64,000 nucleotides of DNA from an uncultured Burkholderiaceae bacterium (GTDB taxonomy: Bacteria > Pseudomonadota > Gammaproteobacteria > Burkholderiales > Burkholderiaceae): positions 5,821 through 69,820 of the forward strand of contig CALMCL010000114.1 in the NCBI GenBank assembly GCA_937862905.1, read 5' to 3'. A program made the translations under genes and the position numbers. This document shows positions 7,999 to 9,066 of the stretch, one piece after another. The notes below the pieces were generated by a model, which did no database searches, was not told the origin of the DNA, and worked only from the letters and a program-made list of their open reading frames with translations. How positions within the stretch are numbered: the stretch's first letter is position 1; each line of letters opens with the position of its first letter.

Positions 7999-9066
7999 AT
8001 GAAAAAAATATGTATTTTTTTTGTGTTGTTGCTCAATACTTCATTATTGATGGCAGCTTCTTTTGTTGTCACAAATGTCGCTGATTATGGACGAAATGAA
8101 ATCCCCATTCAGGGCTCTTTGCGTTATTTTATTGAAAATGCAAAAAATGGTGCTTACATTACTTTCAATCCATCTGTTTTTACGAGCTCGGGGGGCGTGA
8201 TTTTTTTAAAAAGACCTTTAGTGGTTGGGTCTGATGTTCATATTGATGGCATAGGAGCTAATGTTGTTATCAGTAGTCAAGTGAGTTGGCAGGATTTTGA
8301 ACTTTCATCTTCTGGAGCGGAGTGTCTAAGGAAAGCTGGTGTTTTGTCACAAGATAAGAATGATTTCTCAAAAATCTATATTAGAGGGAAAGCAAATAAT
8401 GTCTCTGTTGTTAATTTAACGTTTTCGAATGATTTTGGCCATCCACCTGCTTGGTGGACTGAGAGAGTGCAAGATGATTGTTTAAAGGATAGTATTACCG
8501 TAATAGAGTACGCTGATAATGTTTTAATTGGTCATAACCGATTTTTGAATTGTGGGGATGAGTGTGTTTCAGTCATACAAACAGATTTAGATGCGCCAAA
8601 AAATGTGGTTATTGAAAATAATATATTTAGTAAGGTTAATAAATCGATTCTGATTAAAGGAAGCTTTAATGGGCTTGAGTCAAGCTTGGAGCCAACTATA
8701 AAAGTTAAAGTATTGAATAATTTTTTTGATGAAACTCAGCAACGAAACCCTAGGGTGCAAGATGCGTTTGTTGAAATATTAGGAAATGTTGTTTATAAAT
8801 GGAAAACCTCAGGTATGGCATTTTCAGGTCGTAATAAATTGATAATAAATAACAACCACTTTATTAAAGGAAGTGATTCTGATGCCCTGTTGTTTCTTAA
8901 TAATACAAAAGAAGAGCTGCAATCTTATCGCGGTAATGTGTTTGTTGGAGACGGCGTGAAAAGGCCCGCCGCTGAGTCTGACTATTCAAATAGAGTAGAA
9001 AAAAGACTTTTACCTGAGGATGTTTTGGATATTGAGGCTGTAAGAAAAATGGCGGGACCACGTTGA
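7999..9066 (+). CDS. vexL: Secreted PL1 (pectate-lyase-fold) polysaccharide lyase, probable Vi-antigen lyase VexL
   Basis: ATG at 7999 gives a signal peptide (MKKICIFFVLLLNTSLLMA/ASF). PL1 beta-helix hallmarks: VVTN.AD.G..GSLRY, PL.VGS...IDG.G, DSITV, GDE.VSV, QRNPRV. Downstream of vexE. Confidence 0.75.
   Translation: MKKICIFFVLLLNTSLLMAASFVVTNVADYGRNEIPIQGSLRYFIENAKNGAYITFNPSVFTSSGGVIFLKRPLVVGSDVHIDGIGANVVISSQVSWQDFELSSSGAECLRKAGVLSQDKNDFSKIYIRGKANNVSVVNLTFSNDFGHPPAWWTERVQDDCLKDSITVIEYADNVLIGHNRFLNCGDECVSVIQTDLDAPKNVVIENNIFSKVNKSILIKGSFNGLESSLEPTIKVKVLNNFFDETQQRNPRVQDAFVEILGNVVYKWKTSGMAFSGRNKLIINNNHFIKGSDSDALLFLNNTKEELQSYRGNVFVGDGVKRPAAESDYSNRVEKRLLPEDVLDIEAVRKMAGPR

Follow-up and report, generated by a model that had tools for sequence, protein, structure and literature searches.

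A putative PL1 lyase beside a divergent Vi-type capsule locus in a Burkholderiaceae bacterium and its relationship to VexL

Introduction

Does a lyase gene that follows a Vi-type capsule locus have to descend from vexL, or can a PL1 lyase of other ancestry fill the same place? This question is raised by a 64,000-nt stretch of DNA (C114:5821-69820; hereafter the window, in whose coordinates positions are given unless another contig is named) from what we take to be a freshwater Burkholderiaceae bacterium. In the window, a gene for a predicted secreted PL1 lyase lies directly downstream of vexE, and a preliminary description of the sequence proposed that it is a divergent orthologue of the Vi lyase VexL. 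To our knowledge, VexL is the only known capsule-degrading enzyme inside an ABC-transporter capsule system, and it had been regarded as restricted to one Burkholderiales clade; reportedly, work with this enzyme established the periplasmic exposure of nascent capsule. The VexL used for comparison here is the Vi lyase of Achromobacter denitrificans (PDB 6FI2; Liston et al. 2018, PMC6003464).

Judged by its sequence, the window lyase is placed outside the VexL clade, in or at the base of a separate PL1 group that is marked by four cysteines. The reading favoured here, with moderate confidence, is that it is an independently recruited functional analogue of VexL; that is, an exported PL1 lyase whose substrate would be the Vi-like polymer that its own locus makes.

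The lyase gene and its product

The lyase gene (P0001) occupies positions 7999-9066 on the forward strand. It runs from an ATG at 7999 to a TGA at 9066 and is an intact open reading frame (ORF) encoding 355 amino acids. The ATG at 7999 is preferred as the start because a TTG at 7948 would bury the signal peptide. This Sec-type signal peptide (7999-8061, forward strand; residues 1-21, cleavage site approximate) reads MKK-ICIFFVLLLNTSLLM-AAS; two lysines are followed by a hydrophobic core (Kyte-Doolittle values up to 3.6 in the hydropathy profile) and by A-A-S at about residues 19-21. The mature protein has approximately 334 residues and is mildly acidic, with an isoelectric point (pI) of 5.9.

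Two close variants of the lyase are available: one is 98% identical and found in a congeneric genome (G005), and the other is 95% identical and found in a metagenome contig (Logan contig L082). A word-indexed homologue search gave the 95% variant only; for remote relatives an exhaustive search was used. Against the two variants the ratio of nonsynonymous to synonymous substitution rates (dN/dS) is 0.25-0.41, which on small counts indicates purifying selection. The metagenome contig opens with a perfect inverted repeat of approximately 28-30 bp (L082:1-75), at which its similarity to the window ends, about 160 nt upstream of the start codon; this repeat probably stems from faulty assembly of the contig end.

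Assignment to PL1 is consistent across methods. Pfam gives a PF00544 match just above threshold (26.9 bits, cut-off 24) and a PF13229 Beta_helix match (26.9 bits, cut-off 25.9); the catalytic Arg in xRxPRx and the conserved Lys are both present. AlphaFold run on the single sequence reached a predicted local distance difference test (pLDDT) score of 35; the structure used here comes from a run on a 46-sequence alignment (A2), which gave a parallel beta-helix with pLDDT 84.8 and a predicted template modelling (TM) score of 0.87. In this model, residues 1-17 are disordered or helical, with the beta-helix beginning near residue 20. When the model was compared with the PDB using Foldseek, the best 27 matches were all PL1 lyases. 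VexL (6FI2) came first (E 6.8e-8, TM 0.59) and Jun a 1 second, nearly tied (9.8e-8). A sequence search of PDB chains also ranked VexL best; the match is weak (E 5.7e-5) and covers residues 206-289 only.

The predicted catalytic residues lie in well-conserved columns. The motif QRNPRVQ (8740-8760, forward strand; residues 248-254) aligns with VexL Q231-Q237; VexL numbering was fixed by the lyase of locus L017, which is gapless over residues 1-401 of 6FI2. K215 (8641-8643, forward strand) is the equivalent of VexL K195, and its column holds Lys in every sequence counted (31/31 from the four-cysteine group, here called group X; 5/5 from the VexL clade; 3/3 from sphingomonads). R249, P251 and K215 occupy invariant or near-invariant columns of alignment A2. 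By this alignment, the catalytic base is predicted to be R249 (VexL R232) and the carboxylate clamp R252 (VexL R235). At residues 175-180 (8521-8538, forward strand) the protein has VLIGHN, a degenerate counterpart of the PL1 vWiDH motif; it is aligned with VWVDHM in VexL and AWIDHN in Jun a 1. The signal peptide, the PL1 beta-helix, the QRNPR motif at the catalytic-Arg position and the VLIGHN replacement had all been put forward in the preliminary description, and each is borne out here; the structure prediction that it had suggested gave the expected parallel beta-helix with VexL nearest by fold.

It is very unlikely that the protein is an inactive beta-helix with a polysaccharide-binding or scaffold role. 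Such a role would fit the degenerate vWiDH, the marginal Pfam score, the absence of the N-terminal GFxxxTTGGxGG segment of group X and VexL, and the replacement by Glu of an Arg (R172) that VexL needs. Against this, the protein keeps the catalytic Arg together with the Lys and the second Arg, purifying selection acts on the gene, and the model is confident in the core.

Comparison with VexL

The window lyase resembles VexL in several respects. Both proteins have the PL1 right-handed beta-helix and a Sec signal peptide, and both are encoded downstream of vexE in a Vi-type locus. The Q-R-N-P-R-x-Q motif and the catalytic Lys are conserved in both, with K195, Q231, R232, R235 and Q237 of VexL corresponding to K215, Q248, R249, R252 and Q254; a GMxFS stretch follows the same pattern. 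Mutagenesis of VexL has shown that K195, R232 and R235 are each essential, the K195A variant being inactive (PMC6003464). QRNPR was considered as a VexL-specific marker and rejected; classical PL1 matches carry this motif and the GM that follows it as well. On alignment, the catalytic residues of the window lyase are general PL1 features and include no VexL signatures.

The differences are more extensive. Firstly, the window lyase is 26% identical to VexL (41 bits), whereas members of the VexL clade share 65-89% identity with the A. denitrificans enzyme (PMC6003464). Secondly, VexL was not among the 143 matches of an exhaustive HMMER search of 1.84 billion cluster representatives, the best of which has approximately 30% identity (E 6e-24). 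Thirdly, when profile hidden Markov models were built from four groups and scored against the window lyase, group X scored 201 bits, classical PL1 116 bits, the sphingomonad Vi-locus lyases 99 bits and the VexL clade 37 bits.

The two proteins also differ in insertions and in the residues around the substrate groove. VexL has insertions at residues 273-305 and 314-330 that wall the groove and bear Y295, Y298, R305, L308 and the C279-C296 disulfide; neither insertion is found in the window lyase, and the N-terminal cap segment of VexL is also absent. Y254, Y295, Y298, R305 and L308 are the acetyl-recognition residues of VexL, and the last four contact the N- and O-acetyl groups of Vi (PMC6003464). 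In the window lyase Y254 is replaced by S271 and D252 by Lys. Conversely, the window lyase has two insertions and four cysteines that VexL does not contain. When the alignment with VexL suggested in the preliminary description was made, it went against orthology: R172, Y254 and the groove-wall insertions are missing, and identity falls well below the range of the VexL clade.

The three acidic Ca2+-ligand positions of classical pectate lyases, which we take to be those of the PelC and BsPel structures, are occupied in the window lyase by D164, D187 and S191 (with Glu188 adjacent), compared with Q, D and N in VexL. D187 is the counterpart of VexL D171 at a classical PL1 ligand position. Two of the three positions are thus kept in the window lyase, D164 being retained where VexL has Q, and one of three in VexL; the third classical Asp is missing from both. 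Since the window lyase lacks the acetyl loops of VexL and keeps two of three ligand positions, its acetyl tolerance and its metal dependence may both differ from those of VexL. A different tolerance of O-acetylation had been anticipated in the preliminary description; the loss of the acetyl-contacting residues fits this proposal, for an activity that is itself predicted.

Relationship to other PL1 lyases

Group X is an uncharacterised PL1 group (P0004-P0049 among the 143 HMMER matches), from which 31 aligned sequences were counted. The window lyase shares with it, besides the best profile score, both insertions and the four cysteines. Insertion 1 (8275-8373, forward strand; residues ~93-125) carries W97 and C109; by column counts in alignment A2 it is found in neither VexL nor the sphingomonad lyases. 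Insertion 2 (8434-8481, forward strand; residues ~146-161) ends in DDC with C161 and is likewise common to group X and absent from VexL. The NCGDEC motif (8548-8565, forward strand) contains C185, D187, E188 and C189 and corresponds to CGD(E/G)C in the group. C109, C161, C185 and C189 are invariant over all 31 sequences. W97 and D164 are also shared, as is the IWIN-type loss of the vWiDH Asp.

The window lyase also differs from this group. Its identity to group X members is only 24-32%, and its long branch attaches at the group base or outside it. It does not contain the LxGFxxxTTGGxGG N-terminal segment, which is more than 90% conserved in group X; by alignment, FVVTNVADYG is the strand with which the mature protein opens. 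At the third Ca-ligand position it has Ser, compared with Asp in 16/31 group X sequences, and the classical-PL1 GM is kept where group X has V or I. Only two of the 401 Pseudomonadota genomes sampled across the phylum, the host genome included, contain group X, which is too few to gauge its linkage to capsule loci.

The window lyase has the same fold as classical Ca-dependent pectate lyases and Jun a 1 (1PXZ, 2PEC, 1BN8); it also has their catalytic Arg and Lys and, at two of the three Ca-ligand positions, their acidic residues. Unlike these proteins, the window lyase lacks the third ligand and vWiDH, is linked to a capsule locus and has no pectin catabolic context.

Phylogeny

Maximum-likelihood quick trees with support from the Shimodaira-Hasegawa-like approximate likelihood ratio test (SH-aLRT), and approximately unbiased (AU) tests, were computed on datasets of 76 and 48 rows. 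In the trees, VexL groups with classical and plant PL1 lyases. The window lyase and P0040, both long branches, attach at the node that separates group X from the rest. When P0040 is removed, the window lyase joins the sphingomonad group weakly (SH-aLRT 55), and the split between the window lyase, group X and sphingomonad lyases on one side and VexL and classical PL1 on the other has an SH-aLRT of 92. Constraining the window lyase to be the sister of VexL costs 24-30 log-likelihood units. In the AU test, a joint VexL clade has p 0.109 with 76 rows and p 0.012 with 48 rows.

The long-branch weakness of the models and the atypical composition of the lyase mean that the phylogeny argues only moderately against orthology; shared indels and profile scores are stronger arguments than the trees.

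The preliminary description had proposed a VexL orthologue; if it were one, the gene would have been inherited with the Vi locus, diverged under fast AT-biased evolution and lost the VexL loops secondarily. This is unlikely. Relative to vexE, the gene does match that of VexL in position and strand, and VexL is the top PDB match of its product by both sequence and fold; the QRNPRxQ and GMxFS patterns are identical, and the catalytic Lys, both Arg and the Gln residues are kept. In composition the lyase departs from the other aligned sequences, its branch is long, and the 76-row AU test does not reject the joint clade (p 0.109). Part of this likeness is uninformative, since GM and QRNPR are also found in classical PL1. 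The VexL profile is far outscored by that of group X, and the two insertions and four cysteines are rare changes that are hard to obtain by divergence alone; the 48-row AU test also speaks against a joint clade. In addition, no lyase accompanies the Vi loci that are nearest by VexE, and the window lyase gene differs from its locus in GC content at third codon positions (GC3), as described below. What stands of the orthology proposal are the position of the gene, the marginal structural match and the conserved catalytic residues, while identity, profile scores, indels and trees favour a lyase from outside the VexL clade.

Vi-type loci and their lyases

An alignment of VexE homologues gave 102 hits in species-representative genomes, and the Vi-type loci of 80 of these were fetched. 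A PL1 lyase is encoded next to vexE or tviC in 60 of these 80. A few bases separate vexE from the start of the lyase gene in Achromobacter, Bordetella, Castellaniella and related Alcaligenaceae; in Paraburkholderia and Caballeronia, the lyase gene is placed after tviC.

Sphingomonadales have a separate PL1 lyase lineage whose gene overlaps the vexE stop codon (L028:11653-12825 in a Sphingobium metagenome-assembled genome (MAG); L093/L094:10001-11212, P0067, in GCA_000466945.1). These lyases resemble the window lyase in the placement of the gene right after vexE and in the conserved catalytic QRxPR and Lys. In contrast to it, they form their own well-supported clade (SH-aLRT 96-98), contain neither the group X insertions nor the cysteines and are strongly basic (pI 10.8); they are 28% identical to the window lyase. 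Their sequences suggest a second, previously undescribed lineage of lyases linked to Vi loci; in the literature searched, no description of Vi-locus lyases outside the VexL clade was found.

A third association is found within group X. P0030 (GCA_022865105.1; L092:10001-11248) is convergent to a TviE/VexABCD locus (L092:11269-21248). This locus contains TviE (430 bits), VexA-D homologues, a tetratricopeptide repeat protein and an extra GT4 glycosyltransferase; CysN/C and CysD are encoded nearby. The linkage of PL1 genes to Vi-type loci in three sequence lineages (VexL, sphingomonad and group X P0030) supports the capsule of its own locus as the target of the window lyase. It is possible, though this is put forward tentatively and as less than an even prospect, that Vi-type loci recruited PL1 lyases independently at least three times: as VexL in Alcaligenaceae and Burkholderiaceae, as the basic lineage of Sphingomonadales and as the four-cysteine lineage.

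Among the lyase-free loci of the survey, the Hydromonas MAG G004 has tviC-tviD-tviE-vexABCDE in the same gene order as the window locus (L002, equal to G004:C1, 203-11911); housekeeping genes follow, encoding pseudouridine synthases, LtrA, PtsI and PurK. Legionella sp. D16C41 has a complete Vi-type locus on a 225-kb plasmid (L001:1547-14786), with tviD after vexE. Its vexD is split into overlapping ORFs (8575-9114 and 9063-9863), which may reflect a frameshift; L. gresilensis (L004) has the same gene order with vexD intact.

The capsule locus of the window

Upstream of the lyase gene, the forward strand of the window carries the 3' part of tviE, encoding a GT4 polymerase (2-1186), followed by vexA (1345-2493), vexB (2519-3277), vexC (3279-3929), vexD (3944-5440) and vexE (5444-7390), all assigned with NCBIfam. 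The vexA-vexE genes (1345-7390; GC 38-43%) encode the export machinery and the lipid-anchor acyltransferase of a Vi-type capsule. A Vi-specific NCBIfam model (TviE, VexA-VexE) is the best or second-best match for each upstream ORF. All scores fall under the equivalog cut-offs, and the locus is therefore divergent. The 5.8 kb of contig ahead of the window contain tviB, tviC, tviD and the rest of tviE, again with Vi models as best matches, so that by sequence match the tviBCDE-vexABCDE set is complete. From this gene content and the established roles of the tvi and vex genes (PMC6003464, PMC9597891), the product of the locus is predicted to be a Vi-like glycolipid of O-acetylated poly-alpha-1,4-N-acetylgalactosaminuronic acid (GalNAcA).

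The lyase gene was initially placed at the end of the vex operon. It does follow vexE directly on the same strand; between the two genes, however, there is a non-coding spacer of 608 nt (7391-7998) that is unique in the genome, compared with the usual distance of approximately 5-30 nt between the vexE stop and VexL, and membership of the operon is only a possibility. No promoter or terminator was found in a consensus scan of the forward strand of this spacer, and Rfam and ORF scans of it gave no credible RNA family or gene remnant. In the congener G005 the approximately 290 nt upstream of the lyase start are identical; in the 95% variant conservation extends over about 150-160 nt.

Downstream, the core gene plsX (9161-10213, reverse strand; GC 54%) forms the right edge of the island. 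Further away in the window, positions 58229-58292 (forward strand) match RF02278, a Betaproteobacteria toxic small RNA, with 54 bits compared with a gathering score of 50.

Host genome and origin of the lyase gene

The host genome has 2.5 Mb in 270 contigs, with 48.7% GC, and is rated 100% complete. Among seven congeners, the lyase is found in one (G005), and a Vi locus is found in G004 only; this Vi locus is a very different one. The junction between the lyase gene and plsX is kept in both close variants. In the closest congener (G006, plsX 95% identical), homology to the host contig starts exactly at plsX, and the adjacent site holds a Kps-type capsule locus that ends in an IS1595 transposase gene (L108, equal to G006:C1:838000-857500; 8202-16036). 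This locus encodes a KpsC-like PF05159 protein, a DUF2279 lipoprotein, Poly_export, an ABC-2 permease and an ABC ATPase, with cysN/C and cysD upstream. The different capsule locus and the IS1595 element by plsX in G006 identify the plsX-adjacent site as a capsule-switching hot spot.

Composition differs along the island. The tvi and vex genes have GC 38-44% and GC3 36-40%, the lyase gene GC 35.7% and GC3 27.5%, and plsX GC 54% and GC3 58%. The GC3 contrast and the 608-nt spacer suggest that the lyase gene was added separately from the tvi and vex genes; on this evidence it probably joined the Vi island independently of them.

A variable site of this kind also bears on another explanation, in which the protein is an exported lyase for a foreign polyuronate (an algal or plant pectin-like polymer, or the exopolysaccharide of another microbe) and the plsX-adjacent site merely collects horizontal DNA. 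We consider this doubtful, though less so than orthology with VexL. The distinct GC3 and the spacer, the insertion sequence in the congener, the missing Vi-specific contacts of VexL, the pectate-lyase-like retention of two of three Ca-ligand positions and the neighbourhoods of most other group X genes are all as it would predict. The genome is less accommodating: a search of the complete 2.5-Mb assembly found no second PF00544 match, no KduI and no GH28, and a pectin-catabolic role would therefore have no pathway behind it. A chance arrival is also disfavoured by the three sequence lineages in which PL1 lyases accompany Vi-type loci and by the lyase-plsX junction, which two close variants conserve.

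Proposed function

As an independently recruited analogue of VexL, the window lyase would be exported by the Sec system to the periplasm, where its four conserved cysteines could form disulfides. Its substrate would be the polymer of the adjacent tviBCDE-vexABCDE locus, predicted from the locus to be O-acetylated alpha-1,4-poly-GalNAcA. Going by the alignment, cleavage would proceed by beta-elimination with Arg249 as the base, and Lys215 and Arg252 would hold and neutralise the uronate carboxylate. By analogy with VexL, the enzyme may shorten, release or clear capsule chains that cross the envelope.

A number of observations weigh against this reading. In the protein itself, R172 of VexL corresponds to E188; R172 supports the catalytic Arg, and the R172A variant of VexL is inactive (PMC6003464). 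The mature protein is mildly acidic where VexL is basic (pI 5.9 and 8.4, respectively). A mildly acidic pI is unexpected for a polyanion-binding enzyme; the figure describes the whole protein and not the charge of the groove. In the trees, the position of the window lyase is unstable between datasets, and the sister position to VexL is not rejected with 76 rows.

Gene neighbourhoods contribute the remaining points. The 608-nt gap between vexE and the lyase gene weakens the case for their co-expression. Among the 80 loci examined, the nearest by VexE are free of any lyase within 10 kb (two from Legionella, with 41% VexE identity, one of them on a plasmid, and that of the congeneric Hydromonas MAG, with 40%); a lyase is therefore not required by this type of locus. 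Most of the group X neighbourhoods examined are not capsule-linked: P0005, P0039 and P0040 lie among housekeeping genes, and P0010 (L085:10001-11206) is encoded in a phage-like metagenome contig.

Two of the group X genes have neighbours worth recording. P0010 lies with genes for a dUTPase, ribonucleotide reductase, a DNA methylase and a large terminase; it has a signal-peptide-like N-terminus and no fusion to a tail protein. In searches of PHROGs and BFVD, no closer relative from a phage was found. P0016 is preceded, on a short contig, by a gene for a 554-aa GSCFA-domain (PF08885) protein (L096:480-2144), which could be an acyl-esterase or transferase partner.

Implications

If Vi-type loci did recruit PL1 lyases at least three times, environmental Vi producers would be under recurrent selection for a cognate periplasmic depolymerase. 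The window lyase would then represent a new and minimal Vi lyase, able to recognise the polymer with no need of the acetyl-binding loops of VexL; assistance by Ca and a tolerance of de-O-acetylated Vi are conceivable. A compact enzyme of this kind, without the O-acetyl contacts of VexL, could differ from it in substrate tolerance, and the predicted activity could be useful for sizing Vi in conjugate vaccines or for Vi analysis.

If unrelated PL1 lineages fill the same slot in Hydromonas-like bacteria and in Sphingomonadales, the pairing of a capsule with its cognate lyase would be a convergent design and not an accident of one lineage. In that case, the function of the pairing (chain-length control, release or biofilm behaviour) would become testable by comparison.

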